The notes: generated by a model not told the origin, from the sequence alone. 64,000 nt of DNA from Candidatus Gastranaerophilales bacterium (GCA_944324185.1 CALUVI010000004.1:190-64189); one strand, 5' to 3'. Positions 1 through 52,322 are shown, counted from the stretch's first letter. Made by a program: numbers and translations.

Positions 1-354
1 CGTTATGTAGAGCTGGATAAAGAACTTCTTGAACTGAATTTTGAACAGGAAGGAAATCAGGTTGCTCTTATGCTTTCAATCCCTGTTATAAGAGCAAAGG
101 ACGAAGAAGAAATTGAAGCGGCTTTGAAAGCTGAGGCTGAAAAATTGGAGCAAAAAGCCGAAAATATGGAAGAAGCTTTGCCGGAAGGTGAAAATTCAGA
201 CATCTGCGAAGAAGACAGTTCTGATGAACAGGATATGGTTTGTGAAAGTTCAGGAAGTGATAATACGGCAATGTCGACTCCGGAGGGTATGACCTCCAAT
301 AATAATCAGGAGGAAAGCCAAAAAGAAATCCAATTTGAAGAACAAGGAAGTTAG
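1..354 (+). CDS. minE: 3' part of probable cell division topological specificity factor MinE with a long acidic C-terminal tail (5'-truncated by window)
   Basis: Frame 1 is open from base 1: RYVELDKELLELNFEQEGNQVALMLSIPVIRAK resembles the cyanobacterial MinE C-terminal half (RYVEID...ALIANLPIRR); stop TAG 352-354. Confidence 0.7.
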   Translation, partial: RYVELDKELLELNFEQEGNQVALMLSIPVIRAKDEEEIEAALKAEAEKLEQKAENMEEALPEGENSDICEEDSSDEQDMVCESSGSDNTAMSTPEGMTSNNNQEESQKEIQFEEQGS

Positions 355-360: not shown

Positions 361-394
361 AAAAAGAGGATGATTTTTGAATCATCCTCTTTTT
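361..394. terminator. Bidirectional intrinsic terminator between convergent minE and adh
   Basis: AAAAAGAGGATGATT-tttg-AATCATCCTCTTTTT hairpin with A/T tails on both sides. Confidence 0.85.
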
Positions 395-404
395 TACCAT
401 TACC

Positions 405-1463
405 TTAATCGATAATTACTATCGGCTTAATTAAGTCTCTTGGCTTATCTTTCATAAGCATTAAAGCAGGTTCTACGTTCTCTAGTCCGCGGAAAGTGTG
501 GGTAATTAATTTTTCAGGGTGAATTCTTCCTGCAAGAGCAAGCCTTGCAAGTTTTTCGGAACGCAGCCTGCCGCCCGGCATAAGCCCGCCCACGATTTGC
601 TTATGTCCCATACCGCAGCCCCATTCAACACGAGGAATTTTCAAATAATCACCTTCTCCGAGGTAGTTAACGTTACCGATTTTGCCGCCCGGTTTAAGCA
701 TTCTTACTGCCTGATCGAATGTATCATTATCTCCGCCTGCTACAACAATTCTGTCAACGCCTTTGCCTTTTGTTTTGTCCAGAATTTGCTCAACAATATC
801 ACCTTCACGGTAGTTGATAATATCTGTCGCGCCAAATTCTCTTGCAAGGTCAGCGCAATTTTTTCTTGAGCCTACTGCATAAATATTTGCAGCCCCTCTT
901 ATTGCAGCTGCAGCAACAGACATAAGTCCTACCGGTCCTATACCTATTACAACAACATTGTCACCAAATTGAATATCTGCAAGTTCAACCCCGTGGAATC
1001 CTGTCGGTACCATATCACTAATCATACAGGCTGCTTCAAGGCTCAATCCCTCCGGCAAATGAGCAAGGTTTCCGTCAGCGTCATTCACATGGAAATATTC
1101 CGCAAAAACACCGTCTTTAAAGTTTGAAAACTTCCAGCCGGAAAGCATTCCGCCGGAGTGCATTGCATATCCTTCCTGCGCCTCAAGCGAGTTCCAGTCA
1201 GGCGTGATAGCAGATACAAGAACTCTGTCTCCCGGTTTAAAGTCTTTTACAAGGTTTCCGACTTCAACAACTTCTCCGACAGCTTCGTGTCCCAGAATCA
1301 TATTGTGCCTGTCGCCTATTGCCCCTGCCCAGACAGTGTGGACATCTGATGTACACGGAGCAAGCGCAATCGGCTTACAAATAGCATCGTTGGGACCGCA
1401 TTTCGGAGTATCTTTTGTAATCCAGCCGGTTTCCCCGATTTTTAACATTGCAAAACCCTTCAT
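405..1463 (-). CDS. adh: NADP-dependent secondary (isopropanol) alcohol dehydrogenase, zinc-binding
   Basis: Start MKGFAMLKIG at 1463 with GGAGG RBS; motifs CTSDVH, GHEAVG, DMVPTGFHG, GIGPVG, VGSR (NADP specificity) as in clostridial secondary ADHs. Confidence 0.9.
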   Translation of the reverse strand: MKGFAMLKIGETGWITKDTPKCGPNDAICKPIALAPCTSDVHTVWAGAIGDRHNMILGHEAVGEVVEVGNLVKDFKPGDRVLVSAITPDWNSLEAQEGYAMHSGGMLSGWKFSNFKDGVFAEYFHVNDADGNLAHLPEGLSLEAACMISDMVPTGFHGVELADIQFGDNVVVIGIGPVGLMSVAAAAIRGAANIYAVGSRKNCADLAREFGATDIINYREGDIVEQILDKTKGKGVDRIVVAGGDNDTFDQAVRMLKPGGKIGNVNYLGEGDYLKIPRVEWGCGMGHKQIVGGLMPGGRLRSEKLARLALAGRIHPEKLITHTFRGLENVEPALMLMKDKPRDLIKPIVIID

Positions 1464-36792: not shown

Positions 36793-37986
36793 GTGCAAGT
36801 TCTCTGGAAAAAAGAAATAGAAGAAATTAAAGACAGCGGATATTTGAATAACGATATCTCAATTACTGACGCTTTGATTGAGAATTTCTTTAATGAAATT
36901 TTGTATCCTACAGACAAAGGTCTGCTTCAGCTTGCATTCAGCAAAAATCCTACCCAGCAGGATTTAGACAACCTTTTGAAAGATTTTGATATAGAAGTCA
37001 AAGGCGGAAATAAATCCCTGATGCTTTCTTATTTTATGAAACGCCATCCGGAATTAAATTTCACTGCCTATGAAGGTCCGCGCCTGAAAGGTTTGTTAAA
37101 ATTTTTCAGATTTAAAAACCTTAGCACTATCTCTCATTTTACAAAAATCGGAAGAGAATTGAATAAAGCCGGCATTATTCCGATGCTTTTAAAAGGCGGA
37201 GCAATGAAGTTTTTAAGGCAGGATTTACCGAGAGTAATGAGCGATATTGATATCCTTGTTCCTGAAAAAGACTTGATGAAATGCGCAAAATTAGCAGAAC
37301 CTCTCGGTTACTGGTGGGAAAAAGTTGATATTCATGCAATTGACCTTCATCCGGAAGGAAGCGAAGAAGGTGCTTTAGATGTCCACAAATTCATTTATAT
37401 GGAAACCGGACACGAAAAATCTTTACTCAAAGGACTTTATAAAAGAGCAAGAAAAATTGTTGCATTCGGTGTAAATGCACTTATCCCTTCAAATGAAGAT
37501 TTATTATTTATATCTCTTGTTAACCTTGCAAGAAACCTCAGAAACAAAACCAGTCAGGCAGGACTTTTGTATACTTTGTTTGACTGCAAATATCTGATGG
37601 AGAGCAAGCCGGATTTTGACTGGGATATTGTAAGAGAAAATGCAAGAAAAACACATACGGAAATTCAGATGAATTTTGCAATGAAATTCATTGAAAAAAT
37701 TTCTCCGGATGTTTTGCCGGAGGAAATTAAGCATGACAAGCTTTTTGAAAAAGAAACAAATGAATATTCAAATATGGTAATGTACAACAGATTCTATCTT
37801 GAGGATTTGAGGACAAAATGCAGAGCAATGAAAGTCGGGAATTTATTAAAAAATCCGGAACAAATTCCTGAATACCTTGCACTTAAACCAAAATACTTCT
37901 TATTGAAAAGAATCCGGAAACATCCAAAATTGATTGAATTATTCATCAAAGATTTAAAAACCAGACAGTACGAGTTTACAAAATAA
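36793..37986 (+). CDS. Nucleotidyltransferase family protein (NTP_transf_5-like)
   Basis: PMLLKGGAM...RVMSDIDILVP, LDVHKF; GTG start adjacent to the GT2 stop. Confidence 0.75.
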   Translation: MQVLWKKEIEEIKDSGYLNNDISITDALIENFFNEILYPTDKGLLQLAFSKNPTQQDLDNLLKDFDIEVKGGNKSLMLSYFMKRHPELNFTAYEGPRLKGLLKFFRFKNLSTISHFTKIGRELNKAGIIPMLLKGGAMKFLRQDLPRVMSDIDILVPEKDLMKCAKLAEPLGYWWEKVDIHAIDLHPEGSEEGALDVHKFIYMETGHEKSLLKGLYKRARKIVAFGVNALIPSNEDLLFISLVNLARNLRNKTSQAGLLYTLFDCKYLMESKPDFDWDIVRENARKTHTEIQMNFAMKFIEKISPDVLPEEIKHDKLFEKETNEYSNMVMYNRFYLEDLRTKCRAMKVGNLLKNPEQIPEYLALKPKYFLLKRIRKHPKLIELFIKDLKTRQYEFTK

Positions 37987-37996
37987 GGAAGAATTA

Positions 37997-39523
37997 ATGC
38001 AGTTTAGAGATTTTACAAAAGAAGAAATCAGAAATTGTTTTTCAAATATTGATAAGTATTTGAAAAACAAAGAGAAAAAGTTTATAAAATATGTTGATCT
38101 TGGCTGTACTGTTGTAAGATTAATCGGTTACAGCGAAGAGTTTTTGCCGCATATTGAAAAGCAGTTGACTTTTGTTTTGCGTGACAATGCGCCAAAGTAT
38201 GACGCAACACTTATTTTGTGGAAAGGAACTGATTTTAATACTCTAATTCCGCAGCTTTCGCCCAAATTCAATCCTAAAACCAATCTAAAACTTAGAATTG
38301 ACTGGATTTATGCTAAAAGAAAATCTTTTGACTGGCTTCATGTAATTGATAAAGATTTTTCTAAGACGAAACCTGCAATTGATATTCAGGCGGAAAGAGG
38401 CTTCTTTATCGGAAACGATTTTGAAAAGAATACTTACTATTATGGCGTAAGAAATCTGGAGCCGGAAGAATTTATTAAAGAAGGGCATTTGTTTGTTCAG
38501 TTCTTCAATAATATTTTAAAAACTCCGACCTCGAATCTTGCCCACGGAGCGGTTATCGGACTTAACGGAAACGGAATTTTGATGTGCGCAAGAGGTCAGA
38601 GGGGCAAATCTACTTTGTCTGTACTTTCTATGATTAAAGGTTTTGAATACGTCTCTGATGATTATTTGATTCTGCATAAGAAAGGCAACGAGCTTTTATC
38701 AAGCCCTATCTATTCTATAATCACACTTTCACCTAAGATGTATAACGAATTGTATGATTATCTGGGCGGTTCAAGATTCGTTTCAAATAACGCAAGAAAA
38801 GACAAATACGTGTTTAATATTGCAAATTTCCACGACAGATTCAGAATGAATTACCCGATTAAAATTTGTCTTTTCCCTGAAATTGTATCGGACAAAGAGC
38901 CTTCAATCCATCCGTGCGAAAAAGGAAGGGCAATTTGCCAGTTGATTCACTCAACATTGATGCAGACTCAAGACTTAAACGACAATAAAACCGTCAAAAA
39001 GATGATGGATATGGTTAAAGACTTTGAGTTCTATAAATTCAATCTCTGCTCTGATATTGAAAAGAATACAGAATTCCTGCGTGATTTTATGAATAATCTT
39101 GAAAAACGTGAAAGAAAAACTATCACGGAGGACAAAATTTATCTGGATATAACGTTTGATTTTGCAAATATTCTGAACAGTGAAACCGGAATAATTTATT
39201 CGATGAACAAATTTGCGACAAATGTGTTTGAGAATTTGAAACGCGGCGTTTCGTATGAAGCAGTTAAGGAAGCTTTAAAACAATTTGAAAGCGAAAACGA
39301 AAATATAATAAGAGATTTTGATTTATTTACAGAAGCTCTTGAGGCTAAAGGAATTACGCTTCCGGCTCCTGTTAACGGAGTACAGGCGGAAATTAATGCA
39401 GAATTTGCAAAAGAAGATAATTACCGGCTGTCTTTTGTGGAACATGCAGAAGAAGAATACAGAGAATTAGTGAAAGTAAAAGAAATAAATAAGGAGAATA
39501 AAAATGAATTATGTGTTAAATGA
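37997..39523 (+). CDS. HPr kinase-like P-loop kinase fused to a C-terminal PqqD/RRE-like domain
   Basis: AHGAVIG, ARGQRGKST, YVSDDY; C-terminus aligns with the downstream PqqD-like protein (NSETGI.Y.(M/L)N...T.V(F/Y)ENL..G.S). Confidence 0.75.
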   Translation: MQFRDFTKEEIRNCFSNIDKYLKNKEKKFIKYVDLGCTVVRLIGYSEEFLPHIEKQLTFVLRDNAPKYDATLILWKGTDFNTLIPQLSPKFNPKTNLKLRIDWIYAKRKSFDWLHVIDKDFSKTKPAIDIQAERGFFIGNDFEKNTYYYGVRNLEPEEFIKEGHLFVQFFNNILKTPTSNLAHGAVIGLNGNGILMCARGQRGKSTLSVLSMIKGFEYVSDDYLILHKKGNELLSSPIYSIITLSPKMYNELYDYLGGSRFVSNNARKDKYVFNIANFHDRFRMNYPIKICLFPEIVSDKEPSIHPCEKGRAICQLIHSTLMQTQDLNDNKTVKKMMDMVKDFEFYKFNLCSDIEKNTEFLRDFMNNLEKRERKTITEDKIYLDITFDFANILNSETGIIYSMNKFATNVFENLKRGVSYEAVKEALKQFESENENIIRDFDLFTEALEAKGITLPAPVNGVQAEINAEFAKEDNYRLSFVEHAEEEYRELVKVKEINKENKNELCVK

Positions 39524-39974
39524 AGAAAAAATGTTTGCTGATGTAACAGACGGCATTGCAATTATTATTAACTCTGAAACAGGGATATACTACGGCTTAA
39601 ACGGTCTTGGGACAGCGGTTTACGAAAATCTTATGAACGGCGCAAGCGTTGAGAGCATTCTTTCTGCACTCAAAGGCTTATCAGGCGCTCCTGCTGACAT
39701 TGAGGCAAGATTAAACAAATTCATTAAAGATATGGTTGATGCGGAATTGATTATCGAAGGTTCTGCTTCTGATTCAGCGGCAAGCATTGATTCTTCTATT
39801 GCTTCAGAAGATAACTTTGAAATGGAATCTAAAGCTTATGATGACGCTCAGGAACTGTTGTTAGCCGATCCTATCCACGAAGTTAAAGAAGAAACCGGCT
39901 GGACTCCTGAAAAGGATTCAATCGGCTACACAAAAGAAGAAACCCGTGAAAGAGAACAAAAAGTCGAAGCCTAG
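39504..39974 (+). CDS. PqqD/RRE-family protein with acidic C-terminal extension (LLLADPIHEV..ETGW)
   Basis: Three strands + three helices pattern: AIIINSETGIYYGLNGLGTAVYENL...FIKDMVDAELI. Confidence 0.75.
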   Translation: MNYVLNEEKMFADVTDGIAIIINSETGIYYGLNGLGTAVYENLMNGASVESILSALKGLSGAPADIEARLNKFIKDMVDAELIIEGSASDSAASIDSSIASEDNFEMESKAYDDAQELLLADPIHEVKEETGWTPEKDSIGYTKEETREREQKVEA

Positions 39975-40445
39975 GGGGTAAATGTATCGGGGTTGATAGT
40001 AATACTACAAGCTTGATATCATTACAAAGAATAATTCCCTAAACCAAGTCAGCCTTTGCCCCCCTTGCGGAGCACCAAAGGGGGGTAAATGTATTAGGCT
40101 GGTAAGTCTCTCTACCAGTTTGGCGTAAATGCATTTAGCGAGGAAGAAATCCTGCCGGCTTAATATTAATACCTTAGAAAGCAGACTTCCGGCTTGGCGC
40201 AACCCTCCCTGATGAGGGAGGGCAGGGTGGGTGCCAGCAAGAGTAATGACAATTGAATAAAACTCACGCACAAAAACAGTAGTAATACGTCATTGCGAGG
40301 GAATAACCAATACAGCCCGAAGCAATCAAAAATGAATAATAAACTTTTCCCCCGCCCCTTGTGGGAGGGGGCAGGGGGAGGGGTAAAACAATCACCCATC
40401 CTAACCTTCCCTCAAAAGGGAAGGAAGGCGCAAAACCAGACACAG
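39975..40445. repeat. Second mosaic of REP-like palindromes
   Basis: GGGGTAAATGTAT units, CCCTCCCT-GATG-AGGGAGGG, family B copy, CCATCCTAACCTTCCC (also at 27839). Confidence 0.75.
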
Positions 40446-40478
40446 GCAAGCGTAAGAAAACAATAACAGGAGAACAAA

Positions 40479-42944
40479 GTGCCAAAAGTATCAGTAATCA
40501 TACCGGTTTATAACACAGAGAATTATCTCAGAAAATGCCTTGATAGCGTTTGTAACCAAACATTGAAGGACATTGAGATAATCTGTATTAATGATTGTTC
40601 TCCGGACGGCTGCCTTGAAATCTTGAAAGAGTACGCATCAAAGGATGAAAGAATTAAAATAATCGACTTCAAAGAAAACAAAGGCGCCGCCTGCGCCCGC
40701 AACGCCGGCATCGATACTGCCCAAGGCGAATACATTGCTTTTTTAGACAGCGACGATTATCCAGAAGAAAACAATTTTTATGAGACGCTTTACATAAAAG
40801 CTAAAGAAACTGGTGCAGATATCGTAAAGGGAGCTTATAAAGATTCTGAAACCGGATATATTGATGAAACAATAAATAATAAAATAAAAGAAGATAAAAA
40901 CAATTTTTGTTCAACATATTGTAGTGCAATTTTTGACTCAAAATTAATTAAAATTAATAATATCAAATTCCCTTTGTTACGAGATATGGAAGACCCTGTA
41001 TTTGCGTTTAAAACCGCATTAAAAGCAAATACAGTAGAAATTATAGACAATTGCTATGTTATTATAGTAAAAAGGTCCGATTCAATTACCTCAAAAACAC
41101 CATCACTCGATGTCCTCAATGATAAAATTTACGGACTAAAAGAGATATGCAATATGGCTACAAGTATTAATAATGGTTTTGTAATCGCAAATTGGTTTTC
41201 TACAACTATACAAGATATGCAAAAAAATAATTGTCAAAAGATTGTTACTCCTATTTTACAAGAATTAGTACACCTTTTTCATAAAATCAAAGATATTCAA
41301 AATTTCAAAACTCGCCTTGAAGAAATATACCCGCATTTATATGATCATTTTTCTCAAATTTATATAAATGAATTCTTTAATATAAAGTCATTAATAGAAA
41401 AAATTGATAACGCTGAGATAATTTCTTTTGACATATTTGATACATTATTGTTAAGACCTTTCATAAAACCTACAGATTTATTTAATTATATAGAGAAATA
41501 TTATAATGCTACAGGGTATTGCTATGAGAGAATTATGGCAGAAAAAAAAGTTCGTCTCGTTAAGTCTTTGAAAAAAAATAATGACGAAGTTTCTCTTGAT
41601 GAAATCTACTCTAAAATGCCCCAAGAATATCATAATTATAAAAAAATAGAAATTGAAATAGAAACTAAGCTATTACAACCTAATAATGAAATGTTAGAAA
41701 TATTTAATTATGCTAGAAAACATAATAAAACAGTAATTATTACATCTGATATGTACCTACCAACCTCAATACTTATAGAAATTTTACACCAGAAAGGATT
41801 TAAGTATTTTGACAGTATATATGTTTCTTCTGAAATAAGAAAAACGAAAGCCTCAGGTGAAATCTTTCAACATATTATTAAAGACTTTGATATTGCGCCA
41901 AATAAAATTTTACATATTGGTGATAATTATAATTCTGATGTAATCATGCCTAAAGCATTTGGAATAGAATCTTTTTATTACCCAAAAGTAATAAAAAGAT
42001 TTATGCAAGTACCAGCAAATACGCGCTTATTAAAATTTTATAATTTAACTAACAAATCTCTCACTGCAAGTATCATTTTAGGGTTGAGAATTCTTAATTG
42101 GCAAAATAATGAATTTAAAAATTATTGGGAATCCATTGGATATAATTTGGGTGGAATCTTATGTACAGAATTTGTTAAATCTTCTATTGAAATCGCAAAA
42201 AATCAAAACATTACAGACTTACTATTCATTGCTAGAGATGGTTTTGTATTAAATAAAATATATAATTATTTTGCAACAAATAATATACAAAACCATTACG
42301 TTTATGCTTCTCGAAAGTTAAGAAGCTTATGCTTGGAAGAATCCGAAAATTATAACACTCGTAGCGACTTTGAATACAAAAAATACATCAATCATTTACA
42401 AGTTGATGATAAAATTATAGGTATTGTCGATTCTTGTGCAATTGTTTCGTTTTCTGCTCAAACATTATTAAGCAAATATTTAAATCGTAACAATTTATAT
42501 GGCATATATTTAGTGTCTGGTATAAATTATAAATATAAATATTTTAATTTGACTAATACTCCTATAGAAGTTCATCTAAAAACTCTTAATTGGGACTTGA
42601 TAGAATTGTTATTAACAAGTCCAGAAAATCCTATTATAGATATTTTAAATTGTAACCCTGTTTATTCAAAAGAAAATATAAATGAAAATAAACGTCATGA
42701 ATTCTTTGAAGACATTTTTAATGGAGAACTCGCATTTGTAAAAGATTTTTGTAAAATTTTTGGCAAAAATAGCCCTTGCTTGTCTATTCAAGAAATATTT
42801 ACATATTTGTCTAATTTTTGGCAAAACATAGATAATACTGACAAATGCTATTTATATCAAGTTCCGCACGCACAAGACATTAAACAAGAAAAGTATAAAC
42901 CATTGCTTACTCAAACAAGATTAAAGGAAAAACTAAATGCATAA
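40479..42944 (+). CDS. GT2 glycosyltransferase fused to a HAD-superfamily hydrolase
   Basis: N-terminal KVSVIIPVYN/FLDSDD; HAD motifs ISFDIFDTLL, ITSDMY, HIGDNYNSDV. Confidence 0.85.
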   Translation: MPKVSVIIPVYNTENYLRKCLDSVCNQTLKDIEIICINDCSPDGCLEILKEYASKDERIKIIDFKENKGAACARNAGIDTAQGEYIAFLDSDDYPEENNFYETLYIKAKETGADIVKGAYKDSETGYIDETINNKIKEDKNNFCSTYCSAIFDSKLIKINNIKFPLLRDMEDPVFAFKTALKANTVEIIDNCYVIIVKRSDSITSKTPSLDVLNDKIYGLKEICNMATSINNGFVIANWFSTTIQDMQKNNCQKIVTPILQELVHLFHKIKDIQNFKTRLEEIYPHLYDHFSQIYINEFFNIKSLIEKIDNAEIISFDIFDTLLLRPFIKPTDLFNYIEKYYNATGYCYERIMAEKKVRLVKSLKKNNDEVSLDEIYSKMPQEYHNYKKIEIEIETKLLQPNNEMLEIFNYARKHNKTVIITSDMYLPTSILIEILHQKGFKYFDSIYVSSEIRKTKASGEIFQHIIKDFDIAPNKILHIGDNYNSDVIMPKAFGIESFYYPKVIKRFMQVPANTRLLKFYNLTNKSLTASIILGLRILNWQNNEFKNYWESIGYNLGGILCTEFVKSSIEIAKNQNITDLLFIARDGFVLNKIYNYFATNNIQNHYVYASRKLRSLCLEESENYNTRSDFEYKKYINHLQVDDKIIGIVDSCAIVSFSAQTLLSKYLNRNNLYGIYLVSGINYKYKYFNLTNTPIEVHLKTLNWDLIELLLTSPENPIIDILNCNPVYSKENINENKRHEFFEDIFNGELAFVKDFCKIFGKNSPCLSIQEIFTYLSNFWQNIDNTDKCYLYQVPHAQDIKQEKYKPLLTQTRLKEKLNA

Positions 42945-43947
42945 AAAAGTTTCTATAATCATTCCAATATATAATGTTGAACAATATTTAGAAAAATGTT
43001 TAAATAGTGTAATTCATCAAACTTACAAAAATTTAGAAATAATTTGTGTTAATGATTGTTCTCCTGATAATTCTCAAAAAATAATAGAAAGATATAAAAA
43101 GCTTGATAGTAGAATAATCATCTGCAATAGAACTAATAACGGTGGTTTGTCAACAGCAAGAAATACAGGACTTAAAATTGCGACAGGAGAGTTTATATAT
43201 TTTCTTGATTCTGATGACTGGATTGATTTAGATTACATTGAGAAAATGTTACATGCTGCAATAGAAAGTCAAGCAGAAGTAGTATTAAATACAAATATAC
43301 AAGTCCATAATAAAAATTTACCACCTGAACAACATTTCCCTGACAGAACATACAACAACATTACTCATAAATTTATTGATGCAAAACCTGCAATATTAAA
43401 TATTATTTGGAATACTTGGGCTCACTTATGGAAAAAAACTTTTTTAGATAGAATAAATGCTCATTTCCCTGATGGATATATAATTGAGGATCAATATTTT
43501 CAAGCAATAACATATGCTTACCTAGATAAAATATACGTTATAAGAGATAGCACCTATCATTATTTAATAAGAAAAACTAGTATTACTGGCACCCTAAAAA
43601 CAGATTCATTTTCTGCAAATTTAAATATATTGAATAAAATCTATGATTTCTATATAAAAAATAATTTATTCGACAAAATAGATGTCAGGATGATAACTGA
43701 ATGGATATTACCTCAATATGATGAAAATAGAGCGTATCAAATAAAAAAAGTGCGGCTATATTTTCTTAAAATTGCGCCAATGGTAAACAGGACACGCAAC
43801 ATGTATAACAAATTTGAGTTAAAATTATTTGATGATATTGTAAATAATAATCCTTGCGCATTAACACTTAACTACTTTAATTTGTACGTTATTGACAAAT
43901 TAAGAGAAAAAATGAAGCAAAATAAAGGAGTTGCTATACATGGCTAA
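42937..43947 (+). CDS. Glycosyltransferase family 2
   Basis: KVSIIIPIYN, VNDCSPD, STARNTG, FLDSDDW, IEDQYF. Confidence 0.92.
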   Translation: MHKKVSIIIPIYNVEQYLEKCLNSVIHQTYKNLEIICVNDCSPDNSQKIIERYKKLDSRIIICNRTNNGGLSTARNTGLKIATGEFIYFLDSDDWIDLDYIEKMLHAAIESQAEVVLNTNIQVHNKNLPPEQHFPDRTYNNITHKFIDAKPAILNIIWNTWAHLWKKTFLDRINAHFPDGYIIEDQYFQAITYAYLDKIYVIRDSTYHYLIRKTSITGTLKTDSFSANLNILNKIYDFYIKNNLFDKIDVRMITEWILPQYDENRAYQIKKVRLYFLKIAPMVNRTRNMYNKFELKLFDDIVNNNPCALTLNYFNLYVIDKLREKMKQNKGVAIHG

Positions 43948-44824
43948 TATACCCATTTTCTTATCATCAGATAACAACTATGCGCCATTTGTCGCAACAA
44001 CAATTGCAAGTATTTGCGACAATACGGAATCTTTTTGCAGATTTTATATTCTTGATAGCGGCATCAGTATAGAAAATCAGCGCAAAATTATAAGTCTTAA
44101 TGAAACATTTAATAATTTTTCTATAGAGTTCATTAAATTTGATATATATTCTTATTTAAGTGATTTTGAGTATATAAATCAAGCTTCACACGTTTCAATT
44201 TCTACTTATAACAGATTTTTTATAAGCAATCTAAAACCTAAATTTGAAAATGTTCTTTATTTGGACGTAGATTTAATTGCAACAGGTGACATACAAGAAC
44301 TTTTCAGTCAGCACATAGAAAAAACTGTTGGCTGGGTAACTGATGAGAGCAGCAATGATATAATAGAAAATTTCAAAAAAGATTTCGGACTTAATTTCTA
44401 TTTTAATGCCGGTGTAATGTTAATTAATCTAAAAAAATGGCAAGAAAATAATTATACTTCTAAAGCTTTACAATTTGAAAAATTAAACCGAAGTAAAATT
44501 AATTTTGCGGATCAGGACATTTTGAATGTTATTCTAAAAGAGGACTCTGTAAAACTTAATAGTAAATTTAATGTGCAAATATCTGGAAATGGAATTATAA
44601 GACATTTTGTTAATGTATATAAACCCTGGAAAGTTAATTATTTTAAAATAGGAAATCAAATAAAACCGCTTGCAGACTTTGATACATTTTGGAAATATGC
44701 CCAAATGACACCTTTTTATGAAGAATTAAAAGAAAATTATGAAAAAAGCATAAACAGTAGCGTTTTAAATAAAAGAATGAGCATTTTTGTCAATAAAATG
44801 AAAGGCAAGGAATTAATATTATGA
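43940..44824 (+). CDS. Glycosyltransferase family 8
   Basis: IPIFLSSDNNYAP, TYNRFFI, LYLDVDL, YFNAGVMLINL, DQDILN, HF...KPW. Confidence 0.9.
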   Translation: MANIPIFLSSDNNYAPFVATTIASICDNTESFCRFYILDSGISIENQRKIISLNETFNNFSIEFIKFDIYSYLSDFEYINQASHVSISTYNRFFISNLKPKFENVLYLDVDLIATGDIQELFSQHIEKTVGWVTDESSNDIIENFKKDFGLNFYFNAGVMLINLKKWQENNYTSKALQFEKLNRSKINFADQDILNVILKEDSVKLNSKFNVQISGNGIIRHFVNVYKPWKVNYFKIGNQIKPLADFDTFWKYAQMTPFYEELKENYEKSINSSVLNKRMSIFVNKMKGKELIL

Positions 44825-45795
44825 GAAAAAAATATTTAAAAATGATCTTTAATACAGAGGTTAAACTATCTAAAAAAAAATACTGGTACGAAAATTTAGG
44901 ATTTAACTTCTTTTACTATTATCTCAAAATTAGAAGTTTCTTTTCAAAAAAAGATTCCATTATTCACTTCGTATATGAAACAAATACTCAATGTACATTA
45001 CGTTGCAAAGAATGTCATTCGTATATGCCTTATTTTACTAAAGAAGCACATTATATGACTAATTTTGAAACATTCAAGGCGGAAATAGATAAATTATTAA
45101 AAAGTGTTGATTTAATTGTTAGTTTTAGGCTTCAAGGCGGAGAAACACTATTAGTAAAAGATTTAGCCAAAATGGTCGAATATGTTTGTAGCAAAAAACA
45201 GATTCTACATATACAGATAATTTCAAATGGTACAATTATACCATCAGAAGAATTAATCAAAGCTATGCAAAACCCTAAAGTCTTACTCAGTCTTTCTGAT
45301 TATAGTATAAATAAAAAACTTACAAGCAGACTGAAATATGATGAAATATTACAAATTTGCAAAGACAATAATATTGATGCAAAACACTGGCTTACCAAAG
45401 CCGGTGATAGCTGGGTTAACAGAAATTATATTAGTAATGAAAATCTAAAAGACAGAGAGCTTGCTATTAAAAACTTGGCAGCATGCCATTGTTTTGGCTA
45501 TCCCAAATGCTTGATTTTATTCAAAGGAAAACTTTATATTTGTGCTCCGGCTGTATATTTTGCATCAACAAATCCTGATTTTTATATTCCGGAAGGAGAT
45601 GTCATCGATGTAATGAATACTCCACAAAAACTTCTAACCAAGTGGGTTAAGGAATTTAATCAAAAAAAATATTTTGACTTATGCAGCCGCTGCAATGCCG
45701 CAGAAAATGTAAATGTAAGAACCCAACCCGGCGTGCAGTTGGAAGAGACTCAAACCCTTGTCGCCGTAGAGAGTAATCCTGCTAAAAGCATATAG
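44821..45795 (+). CDS. Radical SAM protein with Cys-containing C-terminal region
   Basis: CTLRCKEC (CxxxCxxC), QGGETLL, ISNGT, later C-H-C..C..C and CSRC. Confidence 0.85.
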   Translation: MRKKYLKMIFNTEVKLSKKKYWYENLGFNFFYYYLKIRSFFSKKDSIIHFVYETNTQCTLRCKECHSYMPYFTKEAHYMTNFETFKAEIDKLLKSVDLIVSFRLQGGETLLVKDLAKMVEYVCSKKQILHIQIISNGTIIPSEELIKAMQNPKVLLSLSDYSINKKLTSRLKYDEILQICKDNNIDAKHWLTKAGDSWVNRNYISNENLKDRELAIKNLAACHCFGYPKCLILFKGKLYICAPAVYFASTNPDFYIPEGDVIDVMNTPQKLLTKWVKEFNQKKYFDLCSRCNAAENVNVRTQPGVQLEETQTLVAVESNPAKSI

Positions 45796-46551
45796 TTACA
45801 GAAAGGTTGCATAGTCAATGTATAATAATTTAATATCAATAATCATTCCCGTGAGAAATGGAGCTAATTATCTTAAAGAAGCCATTGATGGGATAAAAAA
45901 ACAAAATATGGACGTAGAGATTATCGTAGTGGATGACGGGTCTACTGACAATACCTTTGAGCTTGCGAAAAGTTTGGGCTGCAATGTTATTAGAAATTCT
46001 GAATCCGAAGGACCGGTCAAGGCGAAAAATAAAGCTATCATTGCTTCTAATGGAGACTTTATTATGTTTCACGACCATGATGATGTTATGAATCCGGATT
46101 CACTTAGGATGATGTTTGAAGAATTACAAGCCGATGAGACATTGTCTGCTGTTATGTGCAAGGTTAAAGACTTTGTGTCACCGGAGATTCCGGAAGAAGA
46201 AAAACAAAAAACTGCTGTTAAGCCGGAGCCCTATTACGGTTTATTTACAGGAGCCGTTCTTATGCGACGGGAAATTTTTGACAAAATCGGGCTTTTTGAT
46301 GAATCAGTAACTGCCGGAGAGATTATTGACTGGCAGACAAAAATGGATAAAAACGGGCTAAAAATTAAGAAATTGGATTTAGTTTCAACAAACCGCCGGT
46401 TGCATACAAGCAACTTCGGTAAAACCCAGCAGAAAAAAGAGTTTAAGGATTATGCAAGTTTACTTAGAGCTAAATTAAGGAAGTAAAAAATGAATGATTA
46501 CATGCAAAATAAGACATTTAAAACGGCTCAAACCCTTGTCGCCGTAGAGAG
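45749..46551. repeat. 25-bp perfect direct repeat CTCAAACCCTTGTCGCCGTAGAGAG (45749-45773, 46527-46551) flanking a GT2 gene
   Basis: Exact match read from the sequence. Confidence 0.9.
45818..46486 (+). CDS. Glycosyltransferase family 2 (short GT-A)
   Basis: ISIIIPVRNG, VDDGSTD, FHDHDD, GAVLMRREIFDKIGLFDE. Confidence 0.9.
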   Translation: MYNNLISIIIPVRNGANYLKEAIDGIKKQNMDVEIIVVDDGSTDNTFELAKSLGCNVIRNSESEGPVKAKNKAIIASNGDFIMFHDHDDVMNPDSLRMMFEELQADETLSAVMCKVKDFVSPEIPEEEKQKTAVKPEPYYGLFTGAVLMRREIFDKIGLFDESVTAGEIIDWQTKMDKNGLKIKKLDLVSTNRRLHTSNFGKTQQKKEFKDYASLLRAKLRK

Positions 46552-46601
46552 AGAGTAACCTCCCTAGTTGAATTTGAAATCAGATATAAGGAGGCTGCAT
46601 A

Positions 46602-47552
46602 ATGGCTCCTTTAATATCTGAAACCAAACAAGCAAATTTACAGAGATTTACTAATCTGTTCAGGCTTACATCTTTTTATGAGAATAAAAATAAACTTACA
46701 CAAGAAGAGCATGAAAAAAATCTTAGTAATCTTATTCAAAATTTAAATGATCCACATGATATTGTATTAAAAGTCGAACAAACTTATCTCACCAAAATGG
46801 TACCTATAAAAAATATCTACACTAAAGAAGAACTACAACAACTAGATAAAATTAAAAAATTTGAACAAGAACCTGAAAAAGTTGATAATTACTTTCAGTG
46901 GAAAAATTATAAGTTACCTGTAAATCTTTTTGAGGCTTCTGTATTCTATTATCAACACGGACTTGATACCCTCAAAAATCCTGAAAAAATTAAAGATAAA
47001 GCAATAATAGATGTCGGTTGTCATATTGCAGACAGTGTTCTTATTTTTCGTGATTATTTCAAAAATAATCCGATTTATTCTTTTGAACCCTCTAAATTAA
47101 ATTATGAAACGGCTCTTAAAACACTTGAATTAAATTCTATTTCAGGGGTTAAAATTGAAAATATAGGACTTGGCGATTCTGATAAGGAACTAAAAATCAA
47201 TTCTACAGATAATCTGCTTAAAAGCTGCGAAAATAATATTTCTGAAGAAGGTAATGAGACTATCAAAATTACAACTCTAGACAAGTATGTTGAAGAAAAT
47301 AATATTGATGTCGGGCTTATAAAAGTTGATATTGAAGGGTTTGAACAAAATTTTCTAAAAGGTGCTTATAAAACAATAAAAGAACAAAAACCTATTTTGC
47401 TTATAAGTATCTATCACAATTATAACGATTTCTACAAAATTAAACCAATGATAGAAAATTGGAATTTAGGCTATACTTTCAGCTTGTTTCAAGGAATTCA
47501 AAATAGCGGTAAGATAGAAGTTGAAACATTATTAATATGTGAACAGTCGTAA
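46602..47552 (+). CDS. FkbM-family SAM-dependent methyltransferase
   Basis: IDVGCHIADS, YSFEPS, ITTLDKY, IKVDIEGFE, LISIYH. Confidence 0.9.
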   Translation: MAPLISETKQANLQRFTNLFRLTSFYENKNKLTQEEHEKNLSNLIQNLNDPHDIVLKVEQTYLTKMVPIKNIYTKEELQQLDKIKKFEQEPEKVDNYFQWKNYKLPVNLFEASVFYYQHGLDTLKNPEKIKDKAIIDVGCHIADSVLIFRDYFKNNPIYSFEPSKLNYETALKTLELNSISGVKIENIGLGDSDKELKINSTDNLLKSCENNISEEGNETIKITTLDKYVEENNIDVGLIKVDIEGFEQNFLKGAYKTIKEQKPILLISIYHNYNDFYKIKPMIENWNLGYTFSLFQGIQNSGKIEVETLLICEQS

Positions 47553-47808
47553 ATTATAAAAACTGACGGCTTTGCAGTTAAAACATAATATCACAGCCTG
47601 AACAAATTTATTTGAGATTTCTTTATATCCAAGACTTCTGCAAATTGTACGAATTTGTATAAAGTTATTCATCTAATAGATATTCTTTGTTATTTTAATT
47701 TCACTGCATTATTTTTCCTTTAGAACAATAATGCGGAGATTTCTGCAATTATAATTTGCAAGTTTTTGAGTTAAAATATTTTATATAAACATAAAATGAG
47801 GGTTTAAG

Positions 47809-48882
47809 ATGAATATAGCAGACAAAGCTTCAAATCCACAGGTAAACTCAAACGGGCAGCCCGTTTATGCAATTATTTTACCGCAGATAAAAGAAACCTC
47901 GGGACTTGCCTGGATATACGTTATGATAATAAACAGGCTTGCTAAAGCTCTGGAACAGGGCTATATTCCGATAATAGACTTACAGCACAATAACAATCAA
48001 TATTTTAAAGACGGGAGAAAATTTAAAGATAACACCTGGGAATATTATTTTAAGCAACCATGCGGAATATCATTAAAGGATTTAGATAATATTGGAGACA
48101 ATTCACAGGTTAAAATACTTATTGATGATTCTGATTTCACAAATATACCGGGAAGTGTTATTAAACTGCAAAGAGTGCTTAACAGTGCGTGCATTGAAAA
48201 ATTTCCGTACAAAAAAGAAGCCCTAAAATATATAAAACTCAGTGATGATGCACAGCAGTACATTGACGATAAGATAAACAGACTTATCGGTAATGAATCG
48301 GAAATACTCGGTATACTATGCAGGGGAACTGACTATATCAGAATTAAACCTAAAGAACATTCTATTCCTGCAACACCTGAAATGCTTATCAAAGAAGCAA
48401 AAGAACTTAAAAGCAAATATCATTACAAAAAAATATATGTTGCAACAGAAGATTTAGAAATTTACAACAAGTTTAAGGATGCATTCGGAGAACTGCTTAT
48501 ACCAAACAATCAGTATATGTACGGGAATTATGAACATTCAAACACTACATATTTATCAAGTATAGAAGTAAACAGACCTAACCATAAATACCAACTAGGA
48601 ATGGAATATTTGTGCTCCATGTATATACTTTCAAATTGCAAATACTTTATAAGCAGCAACAGCTGCGCAGGAGTAGATCTGGTATCAAGATTTTCAAACT
48701 TTTTTTCAAATATGGAATACGTTCACATCTGGGAACGAGGTTCTTATGGATATCACAAAGCTGAGTACAAAAATTTTCCAGAAAAATTATTTTCAATCAA
48801 AAATGAATATAATGACAACATCGTAAGAAAAGTTATCACTATTTTAGGTATAAAAATTAAATTTGTTAAAGAAATTAAATAA
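47809..48882 (+). CDS. Putative O-fucosyltransferase-like (GT-B) glycan-modifying enzyme
   Basis: NTWEYYFKQP, LGILCRGTDY, IYVATED, LSNCKYFI. Confidence 0.55.
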   Translation: MNIADKASNPQVNSNGQPVYAIILPQIKETSGLAWIYVMIINRLAKALEQGYIPIIDLQHNNNQYFKDGRKFKDNTWEYYFKQPCGISLKDLDNIGDNSQVKILIDDSDFTNIPGSVIKLQRVLNSACIEKFPYKKEALKYIKLSDDAQQYIDDKINRLIGNESEILGILCRGTDYIRIKPKEHSIPATPEMLIKEAKELKSKYHYKKIYVATEDLEIYNKFKDAFGELLIPNNQYMYGNYEHSNTTYLSSIEVNRPNHKYQLGMEYLCSMYILSNCKYFISSNSCAGVDLVSRFSNFFSNMEYVHIWERGSYGYHKAEYKNFPEKLFSIKNEYNDNIVRKVITILGIKIKFVKEIK

Positions 48883-48890
48883 AAATTTTA

Positions 48891-49712
48891 TTGTATAATA
48901 GTAATGTGTTTATGTTCTTTTCAATAACCGAAGTTTTCAGACTATGGACTTCGCATATAATTTTAAAAATCCCTGGCTTTAGGATTAAAGCTCAGGAAGG
49001 AAGTCTGCTTTATAATCTGCTGTATCCTTACAGGCAGAATTCAAATATCGGAAAGAATAACAGGTTAATTATTATCGACAATGGCCAGGAAAAAACTGCT
49101 AAAATAAATAAAAATTATAAGGGATTTAAAGTTAATTTCTATGGGAATAACAACACTCTAATTATCGATAAGTCACACAAGCTTGTTAAAACCAATTTTA
49201 TATTTGACTGTTCTGATTCTGTTATTAAAATCGGAGCCGGAGTAAACGGTAAATACCGGATTGCTTTATATGGCAAAAACTGTTCTGTCGCAATCGGAGA
49301 AAATACCTTTTCTGCCGACACCTCTATATTTTTAGTTGACAATTCCATTGAAATCGGCAGAGACTGTATGTTCTCAAACAATGTGAGAATTATAACTGAC
49401 GCACACAGCGTACTGGATTGTAACACTAAAAAAGTCCTGAATCTTCCCGCTAAACCTATAAAAATAGGCAATCACGTATGGCTTGGAGAAAGAACGACTT
49501 TAACAAAGAATGCACAAATCCCTGACGATTGCATTGTAGGAATAGCGTCAGTTGTAACAAAAGCTTTCACGGAAGAACATTCCATAATTGCCGGCAGCCC
49601 TGCGAAAGTCGTAAAACGAAATACAAGCTGGGATTGGGCGCATCCTGCAGACTACAAAGAAAAATTTGAAAAGGATAATAATGAAGAGAATCTTCACATT
49701 CTGGGAACCTAA
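48891..49712 (+). CDS. Hexapeptide-repeat O-acyltransferase
   Basis: IGRDCMFS, TDAHS, IKIGNHVWLG, IPDDCIVGIASVV, AGSPAKVVK. Confidence 0.85.
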   Translation: MYNSNVFMFFSITEVFRLWTSHIILKIPGFRIKAQEGSLLYNLLYPYRQNSNIGKNNRLIIIDNGQEKTAKINKNYKGFKVNFYGNNNTLIIDKSHKLVKTNFIFDCSDSVIKIGAGVNGKYRIALYGKNCSVAIGENTFSADTSIFLVDNSIEIGRDCMFSNNVRIITDAHSVLDCNTKKVLNLPAKPIKIGNHVWLGERTTLTKNAQIPDDCIVGIASVVTKAFTEEHSIIAGSPAKVVKRNTSWDWAHPADYKEKFEKDNNEENLHILGT

Positions 49713-50460
49713 AGAAAACATTCCGGGGTATTTGGAATTGTGCCTGGCAAGTTGGAAAAAATATCTTCCGGATTATGAAATTGTAATTCTTGATTATTCT
49801 AACCTCAAAAATTGGCTTGGAGAAAATTACTTTGACCCTAAATTTTATATCAATTTCTCGCTTGCAGTTCAGTCAGATGCCATAAGATGTGCTGTTCTTA
49901 AAAAATACGGCGGAATTTGGATGGATGTTGATACAATTATTACAGGTAAAAAAGCAAGAGAGATTCTTGAAAACAATGCTGAATTTGCACTTATTTACCC
50001 GCATATTTGTTTAATTAAAGCAAAAACTGAATGTAAAATTTTAACTAAATGGGAGAGAAGAATAAAAAAGCGTATTGAATATGTGAATAAAGCTTTTAGA
50101 AATAAACTGTTGCTTAAATACATTTACCCTAAAATGTATAAAAAGATAACAAATTGGAGTTATCTCGGCAACGATATTTTAAATAAAATAATTGATACAG
50201 AAGATAAATGTTTAAAACTCGACAGAGACAAATTACATACTATGCCGGAGTTTGAACACGCAAAGAGTTTTAACAAACCAGTTAAGATATACAAAAGTTT
50301 CTATTTCAAACATGATTATTCAGATTTTGCGCTCGAAAATAATGGCGGAATTATTCTTTTACACAACTCCTGGACACCTGAAAAGTACAAGAAAATGAAC
50401 CGGGAAGAGTTTTTGAAAACAAACAACACGCTTTCTAAAATTTTGCAGAAGATTTTATGA
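49681..50460 (+). CDS. Capsular polysaccharide synthesis protein (GT32-like, DxD)
   Basis: IFTFWEP, CLASWKK, SDAIRCAVLKKYGGIWMDVD. Confidence 0.85.
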   Translation: MKRIFTFWEPKENIPGYLELCLASWKKYLPDYEIVILDYSNLKNWLGENYFDPKFYINFSLAVQSDAIRCAVLKKYGGIWMDVDTIITGKKAREILENNAEFALIYPHICLIKAKTECKILTKWERRIKKRIEYVNKAFRNKLLLKYIYPKMYKKITNWSYLGNDILNKIIDTEDKCLKLDRDKLHTMPEFEHAKSFNKPVKIYKSFYFKHDYSDFALENNGGIILLHNSWTPEKYKKMNREEFLKTNNTLSKILQKIL

Positions 50461-50498: not shown

Positions 50499-52322
50499 AT
50501 GAAATTAAGTAATACAACAGCGCAAAATTCGTTCAAATACGGATGGCTGCTTTCAAGGATTTTTCCATACATAAAACCTTATATGTTCAGAATAATCTGC
50601 GGGTTTATAGTCGCAATACCATTAGGGCTTCTCGACGGCGTTACAGCGTTTGCGCTAAAACCTTATATGGATTATGTTGTAGGAAAGCAGGATTGGGTTT
50701 TTCACCTTCTCGGGCATGAATTTACGCTCTCTTGGCAATTGTTTGCATTTATTATCCCGTTTGGTGTAATTGCATTTGCAGGATTTCAGGGTGTTTTGAG
50801 ATACCTTAATGACTATATTTCAGCATGGACTTCCCAGAGAATTACAAACGACGTAAAAATGGATTTGTTCCATAAATTAATCTATATGGATCCTCAATTC
50901 TTTGACGAAAATACGTCAGGTATTATTATCTCCAGATACATGAGCGATCCGCAGACAGCTTCCGCTGGAATTGTAGACCAGATTAAGACAATTACAACAA
51001 GCGTTTTCGGAGCATTAGGTCTGATAGCTGTTATGCTTTACAGTTCCTGGAAACTCGCTTTAATAGGCGTTATGGTACTCGGAATTGCTTTTATTCCTGT
51101 TGCGTTAATAAGAAAAAGAATTAAAGCCGCTTCAAATAAAAACATGGTAATCGGCGGTAATATTACAACAAATATTAACGAAACCTACAGCGGTAACAAG
51201 GTTATGGCAGCTTACGAGCTGCAGCAGAGACAGGAAAACTATTTCAGAGACCAGATCTGGGAGTCTTTCAGAGTAAATATGTCACTCACCAAGCGTGCAG
51301 CCTGGATGAGCCCTTTGATGTATGTAATAGCATCTTGCGGAATTGCAATCGTTCTGGGTTACGGAACTCACTTAATTACAAGCGGGCAGATGACAGCCGG
51401 AGCGTTTGCATCTTTTGTAACTTCATTACTTCTTTTATATAAACCGGTTAAAACACTCGGAAACACTCTTACAAGTATTCAAAATATTTTCGTTGCAATG
51501 GGCAGGGTGTTTGAATTATTTGACCTTAACCCTGAAATTCAAGACAGAAAAGATGCTATTCAAATGAAAGATTTTAACGACAAAATCGAATTCAAAAATG
51601 TATGTTTTGAATACCTTCCGGATCAGCCGGTACTTAAGAATTTGAATTTATCTGTCCGCAAAAATGAAACGCTTGCTATAGTCGGCAATTCCGGCGGTGG
51701 TAAATCAACATTGGTTAATTTGATTCCGAGATTTTACGATATCAAATCAGGTTCAATAACTTTTGACGGAATTGATATCAGAGATTTTTCAATTAATTCT
51801 CTGAGACACAACATCGCAATGGTATTTCAGGATAATTTCCTGTTTTCAGGTACAATAAGAGAAAATATTATGATGGGAAATCCGGAGGCAACAGAAGCAG
51901 AACTTGAGCAGGCAATTGAATCTGCGCATCTGCAGGAAATGATTGCCGAGCTTCCGGACGGCTTGGAAACACTTTTAGGAGAAAGAGGTTTGACTCTCTC
52001 CGGCGGTCAGAGACAAAGGGTTGCTATTGCAAGAGCTATGATTAAAAACACTCCGATTGTAATCTTAGATGAAGCAACATCGGCTCTTGATAATAAGTCG
52101 GAAGCTATTGTACAAAAAGCTTTAGATAATTTAATACAGAATAAAACCGTATTTGTAATCGCTCACAGGCTTTCTACAATCAAAAATGCCGACAGGATTG
52201 CGGTAATAACAGAAGGAGAGCTTGTAGAACTCGGAAATCATGAAGAGTTAATGTCCATAGAAAACGGGCAGTACAGAGCTTTGTATGAAATGCAATTCAA
52301 AAAGCAGGAAGCTTTAGTATAA
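50499..52322 (+). CDS. MsbA-like ABC transporter (fused TM + ATPase)
   Basis: Six-TM domain, GNSGGGKST, LSGGQRQRVAIARA, ILDEATSALD, IAHRLST. Confidence 0.9.
   Translation: MKLSNTTAQNSFKYGWLLSRIFPYIKPYMFRIICGFIVAIPLGLLDGVTAFALKPYMDYVVGKQDWVFHLLGHEFTLSWQLFAFIIPFGVIAFAGFQGVLRYLNDYISAWTSQRITNDVKMDLFHKLIYMDPQFFDENTSGIIISRYMSDPQTASAGIVDQIKTITTSVFGALGLIAVMLYSSWKLALIGVMVLGIAFIPVALIRKRIKAASNKNMVIGGNITTNINETYSGNKVMAAYELQQRQENYFRDQIWESFRVNMSLTKRAAWMSPLMYVIASCGIAIVLGYGTHLITSGQMTAGAFASFVTSLLLLYKPVKTLGNTLTSIQNIFVAMGRVFELFDLNPEIQDRKDAIQMKDFNDKIEFKNVCFEYLPDQPVLKNLNLSVRKNETLAIVGNSGGGKSTLVNLIPRFYDIKSGSITFDGIDIRDFSINSLRHNIAMVFQDNFLFSGTIRENIMMGNPEATEAELEQAIESAHLQEMIAELPDGLETLLGERGLTLSGGQRQRVAIARAMIKNTPIVILDEATSALDNKSEAIVQKALDNLIQNKTVFVIAHRLSTIKNADRIAVITEGELVELGNHEELMSIENGQYRALYEMQFKKQEALV

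Follow-up and report, generated by a model that had tools for sequence, protein, structure and literature searches.

A widespread kinase-nucleotidyltransferase-PqqD cassette heads variable glycosyltransferase islands and may prime phosphate-linked glycans

Why should enzymes of the kinds that tailor peptides made on ribosomes and modified after translation (RiPPs) stand in a glycan locus that offers them no separate peptide to work on? The question is raised by three consecutive genes on the plus strand, at positions 36793-39974 of a 64 000-nt stretch of DNA (GCA_944324185.1, CALUVI010000004.1:190-64189; this whole stretch is called the window below), which belongs to a metagenome-assembled genome of Candidatus Gastranaerophilales (Melainabacteria; 1.97 Mb, 96.5% complete). 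The genes encode a PF14907 nucleotidyltransferase, a 508-aa kinase with the fold of HPr kinase (HPrK) and phosphoenolpyruvate carboxykinase (PEPCK), and a 156-aa PqqD-family protein with a RiPP recognition element (RRE). All three proteins are soluble by prediction, their catalytic motifs are intact and their genes are tightly packed. A first-pass annotation had named the same trio, and calls of open reading frames (ORFs) together with matches to hidden Markov models bear out its coordinates and families; it had overlooked a second RRE within the kinase and, in the PqqD protein, a 70-residue extension with a near-invariant motif. Our answer, to which we give a probability of roughly 45%, is that the PqqD protein is a self-leadered RRE scaffold that recruits the kinase and the nucleotidyltransferase, an enzyme of the PsmN kind, and thereby primes a phosphate-linked glycan that varies from strain to strain.

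Nowhere in the cassette is constraint stronger than in the motif AQELLLADPIHEVKEETGW near the end of the free RRE protein. Extended as AQELLLADPIHEVKEETGW(T)PEK, it is nearly unchanged in homologues from Desulfovibrionaceae, Bacteroidales, Spirochaetes, Alphaproteobacteria and Elusimicrobia; across 53 PqqD sequences from several phyla, Q116, D122, P123, H125, G132 and W133 are invariant and the rest of the motif is highly conserved. When the PqqD gene is divided into parts, the ratio of nonsynonymous to synonymous differences (pN/pS) is lowest in the motif (0.10), against 0.37 in the RRE, 0.48 in the strand that precedes the motif, 0.48 in the C-terminal extension and 0.70 in the linker. Synonymous sites in the motif are saturated (pS 0.82), therefore the constraint lies on the peptide and not on the DNA. 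The stretch after the closing GW is variable, with a median of five residues across 116 species and a range of 1-35.

An RRE domain is usually taken as the defining mark of a pathway whose substrate is a separate precursor peptide; here, as the structural model has it, the RRE seems to bind part of its own chain. The top Foldseek matches of the RRE are the leader complexes of TbiB1 (5v1v and 5v1u, TMt 0.82-0.84) and TfuB1 (6jx3). Its sequence profile finds TbiB1 (1.4e-6) and PbaB1 (0.039) and gives no match to LppB (9x8z) at E<=1. In the model of residues 86-112, a helix (97-102) and a strand (109-112) are predicted with local confidence scores (pLDDT) of 89-91, and the strand packs against the RRE. 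The amphipathic strand is a putative ‘pseudo-leader’ that would occupy the leader groove in cis.

The kinase matches existing family models weakly: Hpr_kinase_C at residues 180-234, PqqD at residues 392-453, and TIGR04352 and TIGR04355 with 26.5 and 25.3 bits against a curated cut-off of 200. Ten distant homologues score 20-47 bits on these two HprK-related kinase A/B models; close homologues bear the precomputed tag PF27840 ‘ScmC’. With 16 bits against a cut-off of 240 on TIGR00679, the protein is not a member of HPr kinase/phosphorylase proper. H164, H183, G203-K204-S205-T206 and D221-D222-Y223 are invariant in 52 kinase sequences. The family profile matches HPr(Ser) kinase 3tqf in the PDB, where the P-loop/SDD core alone aligns, and the AlphaFold2 model (pLDDT 90.7, predicted TM-score 0.87) finds PEPCKs and HPr kinase/phosphorylase in Foldseek.

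The second RRE, at the C-terminal end of the kinase, is 47% identical to the free one over 53 aa. The family contains fused kinases of ~500 aa as well as unfused ones of ~370 aa; the fused ones group together on the tree, a topology compatible with a single origin of the fusion. Melainabacteria, gut Alphaproteobacteria and Mailhella are intermixed within the fused clade, a pattern that implies movement of the gene from phylum to phylum. Natural fusions of the tail motif to a kinase do not exist, the long ORFs of that appearance being stop-to-stop artefacts in high-GC genomes.

The kinase ends in NELC(I/V)K (39504-39523), a sequence conserved even among unfused kinases because it is the out-of-frame reading of the conserved start of PqqD (MNYVLNE). 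We therefore rejected NELCIK as a motif of the kinase, regarding it as a by-product of the overlap; by the same token the 20-nt overlap between the two genes is itself conserved. Judged from this arrangement, kinase and PqqD are probably translationally coupled, and the coupling is probably conserved.

The nucleotidyltransferase matches PF14907 with an E-value of 1.4e-20 (74 bits, cut-off 31), and its catalytic KGG...SDIDIL motif (D151/D153, ~37243-37251) is kept across 74 homologues. D151 and D153 are the counterparts of the residues whose mutation inactivates PsmN: the D134A/D136A mutant of that enzyme is inactive, and PsmN is needed for the addition of a +162 Da hexose to phospho-Ser (PMC6993621). 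In the literature searched, PF14907 is mentioned in one phosphonate survey only.

The first-pass annotation had pointed out that the same three families occur in phosphorylated lasso-peptide clusters. This is so for the paeninodin and pseudomycoidin sets (PadeK/PsmK, PsmN and a B1 RRE), and it is also so for the Linear Polyphosphorylated Peptide (LPP) clusters lppA-K-B-S-D-N of Bacillota (Popov et al., Nat Commun 2026; PMC13381572). In pseudomycoidin, PsmK phosphorylates the C-terminal Ser and one or two hexoses are then added to the phosphate in a PsmN-dependent manner (PMC6993621). The LPP core, found in capsule loci, comprises the precursor LppA, the kinase LppK, the RRE protein LppB, the SipW-like peptidase LppS, the MsbA-like pump LppD and LppN; LppK polyphosphorylates Ser3 and is strictly Ser-specific, and the C-terminal half of the leader, which makes no contact with the RRE, has been proposed to address the enzymes (PMC13381572). 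In our preferred reading, the window cassette shares ancestry with the tailoring enzymes of both peptide types.

The cassette is a member of neither. It resembles the LPP clusters in having no cyclase, in its place within polysaccharide loci rich in glycosyltransferases (GTs), in its patchy and horizontally mobile distribution and, by family matches, in combining an HprK-like kinase, an NTP transferase and a discrete RRE. It differs from them in that LppS and LppA have no counterpart in the genome, in that its RRE bears the C-terminal strand and the ADPIHEV...GW motif, and in that its kinase is fused to a second RRE. LPP clusters are confined to Bacillota, whereas the cassette occurs in many phyla; and while LppD belongs to the LPP core, the MsbA-type gene that adjoins the trio's locus is a housekeeping orthologue that is also present in relatives without the trio. 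With the paeninodin-type lasso cluster the cassette shares the discrete B1-type RRE, which the PqqD protein supplies; the macrolactam synthetase, the B2 peptidase and the precursor are missing from both locus and genome, and the cassette is tied instead to multiple conventional GTs.

A recurrent pairing of an HPrK-like P-loop protein with a PqqD-family protein is also seen in Haft's HprK-related kinase A/B systems (TIGR04352 and TIGR04355 with PqqD_rel_X), for which the window proteins score far below the cut-offs, and in SynChlorMet ScmC/ScmD (TIGR04249, TIGR04248; PF27840), where the ScmD score is 22 bits against a cut-off of 100. The HPr-rel-A system occurs in exopolysaccharide loci. We know of no member of the HprK-related or SynChlorMet systems whose function has been tested.

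The missing RiPP partners were sought throughout the genome. Transglut_core3 (PF13471, the lasso B2 peptidase) and the archaeal-type, SipW-like signal peptidase I (TIGR02228) gave no match in the genome, and Asn_synthase (PF00733, the lasso cyclase) gave a single 25-bit partial match on another contig (C19) and none in the window. The LPP leader consensus YxxPxVLxHQxIxFETxxS had no match by regular expression over the six-frame genome; loose matches to the lasso leader [Y/W]xxPx[L/V] were scattered over the genome and unconvincing. There is no second copy of the tail motif in the genome and no conserved small intergenic ORF across 83 related loci. The absence of a lasso cyclase, a transglutaminase-like peptidase and a separate precursor, which the first-pass annotation had noted for the locus, thus extends to the 96.5%-complete genome; the possibility it had allowed, that a lasso cyclase and precursor elsewhere are the true partners, found nothing in these searches, and we rejected lasso or LPP partners elsewhere in the genome. 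A precursor inside the 504-bp gap after the trio (39975-40478) was rejected too, the gap being a REP-like mosaic that is missing from relatives.

The family is large. At E<=0.001 the kinase has at least 640 homologues in a 90%-clustered collection and 1073 representatives in a 50%-identity library, and the PqqD protein has 1217 homologues. A DNA pattern for the tail motif, ADP[IV]H[DE]V-x4-GW, matched at least 120 species when searched in species genomes. The matches listed include Clostridia, Lachnospiraceae, Solobacterium, Mycobacterium, Chlamydiae, Acidobacteria, Gemmatimonadaceae and Synechococcaceae, along with cultured Rhodobacteraceae and Hyphomicrobiales. In 78 of the listed loci, examined as 8-kb stretches that give most of the distant loci a partial operon context, an RRE lies within 8 kb of the motif in 77, a kinase in 71 and a nucleotidyltransferase in 50. 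One 28%-identical relative, known from its kinase, has two PF14907 genes, a motif-bearing PqqD protein, family 2 glycosyltransferases (GT2s), a pyruvyl transferase and an ABC exporter nearby. Cultured carriers include Yoonia tamlensis DSM 26879, Loktanella sp. 5RATIMAR09, Hyphomicrobium sp. CS1BSMeth3, Nitratireductor aestuarii and Aquibium carbonis. The cassette is not described in the literature searched; because it is both widespread and unstudied, its product is probably an undescribed phosphate-linked glycoconjugate. The first-pass idea of RiPP-like machinery repurposed for glycans stands in so far as the trio is physically and evolutionarily tied to GTs, and is too local in its ‘repurposed’, given a cassette present in at least 120 species.

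In the window the trio forms part of an unbroken plus-strand run that begins with a GT2 gene and continues through the trio, the repeat mosaic and a variable glycan block to an MsbA-type ABC exporter (Table 1), so that the setting among GT2 genes and upstream of an MsbA-like exporter is as first described. The first four genes (GT2, nucleotidyltransferase, kinase and PqqD) abut or overlap, and no terminator-like site is found on the plus strand within 35400-40700. Orthologues of the leading GT2, 60-99% identical, stand directly upstream of the nucleotidyltransferase in the Gastranaerophilales relatives L005-L012 and L014. The repeat mosaic is absent from relatives, and in L011, L012 and L003 the next GT2 begins 6-12 nt past PqqD.

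Table 1. Features of the trio and its surroundings; positions are counted from the first nucleotide of the window
Feature	Positions	Residues	Strand	Remarks
Inverted repeat, perfect, 23 nt, around 153 bp	arms 35594-35616, 35770-35792			Arms 100% complementary; context, outside the core cassette
GT2 glycosyltransferase, 286 aa	35932-36792		+	PF00535, 5e-41; no transmembrane segment predicted; stop codon abuts nucleotidyltransferase start
PF14907 (NTP_transf_5) Pol-beta-type nucleotidyltransferase, 397 aa	36793-37986		+	PsmN/LppN kind
Kinase-RRE fusion, 508 aa	37997-39523		+	N-terminal domain, P-loop HPrK/PEPCK-fold domain, C-terminal second RRE
Walker A GQRGKST of kinase	38594-38614	200-206	+	
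SDD motif of kinase	38654-38662	220-222	+	
Second RRE in kinase	39137-39466	~381-490	+	Retains ‘EDNYxLS’ strand; lacks ADPIHEV motif
Free PqqD protein, 156 aa	39504-39974		+	PqqD (PF05402) 6.2e-9, 36.5 bits, cut-off 23.4; start overlaps kinase stop by 20 nt
B1-type RRE (winged helix-turn-helix) of PqqD protein	39504-39758	1-85	+	Modelled pLDDT ~90
Linker, short helix, amphipathic strand of PqqD protein	39759-39839	86-112	+	Linker fast-evolving, Ser/Ala/Asp-rich; strand DNFEMESKAY
Tail motif DDAQELLLADPIHEVKEETGWTPEK	39840-39914	113-137	+	Predicted disordered, pLDDT 50-69; hallmark of the cassette
Clade-specific extension DSIGYTKEETREREQKVEA and stop codon	39915-39974	138-156	+	Absent from most of the wider family
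REP-like repeat mosaic, 504 bp	39975-40478			Between trio and variable GT block; short ORFs of repeat origin only
Variable glycan block	40479-50460		+	GT2-HAD, GT2, GT8, radical SAM, GT2c, FkbM methyltransferase, 357-aa protein, hexapeptide acetyltransferase, Caps_synth glycosyltransferase
GT2-HAD, 821 aa	40479-42944		+	~300-residue C-terminal region without family match
Short GT2, ‘GT2c’, 222 aa	45818-46486		+	Most widely retained GT of the cassette
357-aa protein	47809-48882		+	Faint FUT8-like match only
MsbA-type ABC exporter, 607-aa half-transporter	50499-52322		+	TIGR02203 (MsbA_lipidA) 514 bits, cut-off 602; 38 nt past island

A neighbourhood analysis, which the first-pass annotation had proposed, shows the trio to be the constant head of a changing GT block in relatives: the GT2, GT8, radical-SAM and methyltransferase genes that follow it differ from genome to genome. 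With the nearest relative the trio region shares 97% nucleotide identity; 40828-48916 is there swapped for other genes, and identity resumes at the acetyltransferase. The cassette is mobile across phyla of gut bacteria, and between near-identical strains one GT block has replaced another. The GT most often kept is GT2c, with an orthologue in 51 of 83 loci and in all phyla sampled; it often stands last, just ahead of the exporter, and adjoins an ABC exporter in L003, L012, L073 and L076. Its gene is 92% identical in nucleotide sequence to that of L006, whose flanking GTs are different, which suggests that GT2c moves as a cassette. Exact 25-nt direct repeats flank it (45749-45773 and 46527-46551). 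The island proteins are predicted to be soluble, with a marginal hydrophobic segment in GT2-HAD as the sole exception. Among the island genes there is no Pfam family for an initiating phosphoglycosyltransferase, Wzx/Wzy, a flippase, a polymerase, a ligase or Wzm/Wzt; the genes that define a polysaccharide locus dependent on undecaprenyl phosphate (Und-P), of Wzx/Wzy or ABC-2 type, are thus not found in it.

The island is accessory and strain-variable, the PqqD protein being present in 5 of 31 relatives, as against 30 of 31 for the MsbA-type gene; beside msbA, the island is absent from G005, G008, G009, G010, G025 and G026. The exporter is a housekeeping msbA orthologue and not cargo of the island. 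No other full-length ABC_membrane gene is present in the genome, and in G009 and G010, which belong to the same genus and lack the trio, an 87-88% identical msbA directly follows the orthologue of a pilus usher-like gene with no GTs between; the place of the island here is therefore between a pilus operon and housekeeping msbA. An ABC exporter closes the same-strand GT block in the window and in L003, L012, L015, L073, L076 and L080.

Several observations concern the surroundings. A truncated MsbA-type gene lies outside the window at the edge of a contig (C19:1-881); over the C-terminal half it is 88% identical to the window exporter in protein and 78% in DNA, and may represent either a paralogue or a variant from another strain. 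Contig C29 encodes a third and more distant ABC exporter (582 aa). In some alphaproteobacterial copies (L092:13139-14818) a 560-aa YheC/D-like ATP-grasp protein follows the GT block in place of the ABC exporter; ligation of amino acids or peptides is the reaction of such ATP-grasp enzymes. L005, the nearest relative, with 96-97% nucleotide identity on both sides, lacks 27308-35816 (8.5 kb) and has ~470 bp between the flanks; the segment holds a GC-richer repeat mosaic and the entire chaperone-usher-like pilus operon, and the pilus cluster is therefore itself an indel beside the glycan island. Upstream of the leading GT2, the inverted-repeat segment 35594-35792 is by its sequence a candidate invertible switch. 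A promoter-like TTGACT-16-TATTAT with a TG element (35702-35729) lies inside it and points at the island; it is the best such site of the region, where the number of promoter-like sites is not above the expectation from shuffled sequence. A third, 16-nt copy of the repeat sequence lies at 35826-35841. Anti-phage defence models gave no match.

How might these parts work together? The chemistry of phosphorylation and phospho-glycosylation, and export, are proposed by homology. The PqqD protein would not be a receptor for a separate leader; its B1-type groove would be filled in cis by its own strand, residues 104-112. The disordered motif that follows (113-137, ADPIHEV...GW) would take the role of the enzyme-addressing half of a leader and serve as a handle for partner enzymes, in the first place the adjacent, probably translationally coupled kinase and also the PF14907 enzyme. 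The kinase, with its intact P-loop and SDD motif, would phosphorylate an acceptor hydroxyl held on or by the scaffold; the acceptor may lie in the linker or tail of the scaffold itself, or may be a protein that it holds. The PF14907 enzyme, with its intact DxD, would act on this phosphate as PsmN does on that of phospho-Ser, to give a hexose in phosphodiester linkage. On this primer the soluble GT2, GT8, methyl- and acetyltransferases of the swappable block would build a strain-specific oligosaccharide, and an MsbA-type half-transporter (in this genus, the downstream housekeeping msbA) would export the conjugate.

A number of points weigh against this proposal. Docking of the strand in the groove is deduced from secondary structure and pLDDT. 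No Ser or Thr in the linker or tail of PqqD is conserved across the family, and LppK is Ser-specific. We considered whether the kinase modifies a Ser of the tail; this is unsupported, no Ser or Thr being fixed there and most members ending ~5 residues past GW. The kinase might act on a sugar instead, because the PEPCK/HPrK fold also covers small-molecule kinases. LppN was inactive in the heterologous host in the sole LPP reconstitution (PMC13381572), and a host enzyme might be needed for the PsmN product (PMC6993621). Adjacency to the exporter could be positional and not functional, and some relatives, e.g. L089 and L083, have no exporter in the operon.

The rival explanations rank lower. If the scaffold were to prime itself, the kinase would phosphorylate the linker or tail of the RRE protein, the PF14907 enzyme would phospho-glycosylate it and the GTs would build the glycan upon it, the protein being in effect a fusion of RRE and precursor. 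The RRE protein is the sole non-enzyme of the cassette found in monoderms and diderms alike, and there is no conserved precursor; its order of strand, conserved motif and short C terminus parallels the leader, enzyme-recognition segment and core of LppA, its linker is Ser/Thr-rich in most homologues, and all GTs are predicted to be soluble. We nevertheless consider this unlikely, if deserving of a serious hearing: no Ser or Thr position is fixed in linker or tail, LppK takes Ser alone, the tail past GW varies between 1 and 35 residues, a peptidase that could set a peptide free is missing from the cassette, and a 17-kDa glycoprotein is an improbable cargo for an MsbA-type pump. It seems very improbable that these are ordinary RiPP tailoring enzymes whose precursor, and possibly peptidase, lie at another place in the genome or have diverged beyond recognition. 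The conserved groove residues of the RRE (F73 and the GIYYG strand) would suit it, and RiPP precursors are easy to miss; set against this are a genome without cyclase, B2 peptidase or signal peptidase I, without an LPP-leader motif or a second tail-motif copy, the lack of any small ORF conserved in the 83 loci, and the gain and loss of the island as a unit, by which an unlinked partner would be stranded.

Other explanations dispense with a peptide product. In a lipooligosaccharide (LOS) outer-core island, lipid A-core would be lengthened by the GTs at the cytoplasmic face, the core would receive a phosphate-linked sugar from the trio, and MsbA would flip the product. The position directly upstream of housekeeping msbA on the same strand, a GT8 similar to lipopolysaccharide (LPS) alpha-galactosyltransferases, the presence of WaaA in the genome, a GT content that changes as is typical of LOS loci, and the lack of an Und-P initiation enzyme, flippase, polymerase or ligase among the island genes all speak for it. 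We regard it as quite improbable, since the same motif-marked cassette with kinase and PF14907 enzyme occurs in monoderms (Clostridia, Lachnospiraceae, Solobacterium and Mycobacterium) and is therefore not LPS-specific; the exporters of Desulfovibrio loci are not MsbA-like, and a lasso-B1-type RRE has no known role on lipid acceptors. The related idea that the GT island, ending as it does at the only MsbA gene, is the LPS core locus of the lineage was rejected: such a locus belongs to a lineage's core set and to diderms, whereas this island is accessory (5 of 31 relatives), msbA occurs without it and the cassette extends to monoderms. The slimmest chance of all goes to a regulatory switch, in which kinase and nucleotidyltransferase would reversibly modify the RRE protein or a GT in the manner of HPrK/HPr or GlnD/PII. 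The kinase is related to HPrK, Pol-beta nucleotidyltransferases include protein-modifying regulators, and the trio is constant while the GTs vary; but PsmK/PsmN and LppK, the relatives that have been characterized, serve biosynthesis, neither a phosphatase nor a sensor domain is present, and no Ser, Thr or Tyr is conserved as an acceptor, Y112 being F in several homologues.

A bolder form of the scaffold proposal makes the RRE protein a ribosomal, self-leadered primer or phosphocarrier for lipid-independent glycan synthesis, with the HPrK-like kinase placing phosphate on the motif, possibly on Asp or His and not on Ser. We hold it distinctly doubtful. With the strand in the groove, D122-P-I-H125 would come to lie at about +17 to +20, the distance at which the acceptor Ser of LppA is offered; the phosphodiester-linked sugar would then be formed by the PF14907 enzyme together with the short GT2, the soluble GTs would extend the chain and the MsbA-type pump would export it. 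If true, surface or secreted glycans would have a route primed by a protein, alongside the undecaprenyl-phosphate pathways, and there would be a new RiPP-like product class in which receptor and substrate sit on one polypeptide.

For the scaffold that recruits its enzymes, the consequences are these. If the precedent of PsmK and PsmN holds, the cassette would yield a phosphodiester-linked glycoconjugate made wholly by soluble enzymes, without an initiation enzyme acting on a lipid carrier; to our knowledge no textbook glycan pathway has such an all-soluble layout. The cassette also offers a natural context for the PF14907 enzymes, whose role has been puzzling, LppN having been silent in the one LPP reconstitution. 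Finally, the swapping of GTs, together with the mobility of the cassette, bears the mark of diversifying selection on a surface or secreted structure, be it by phage, the immune system or competitors.

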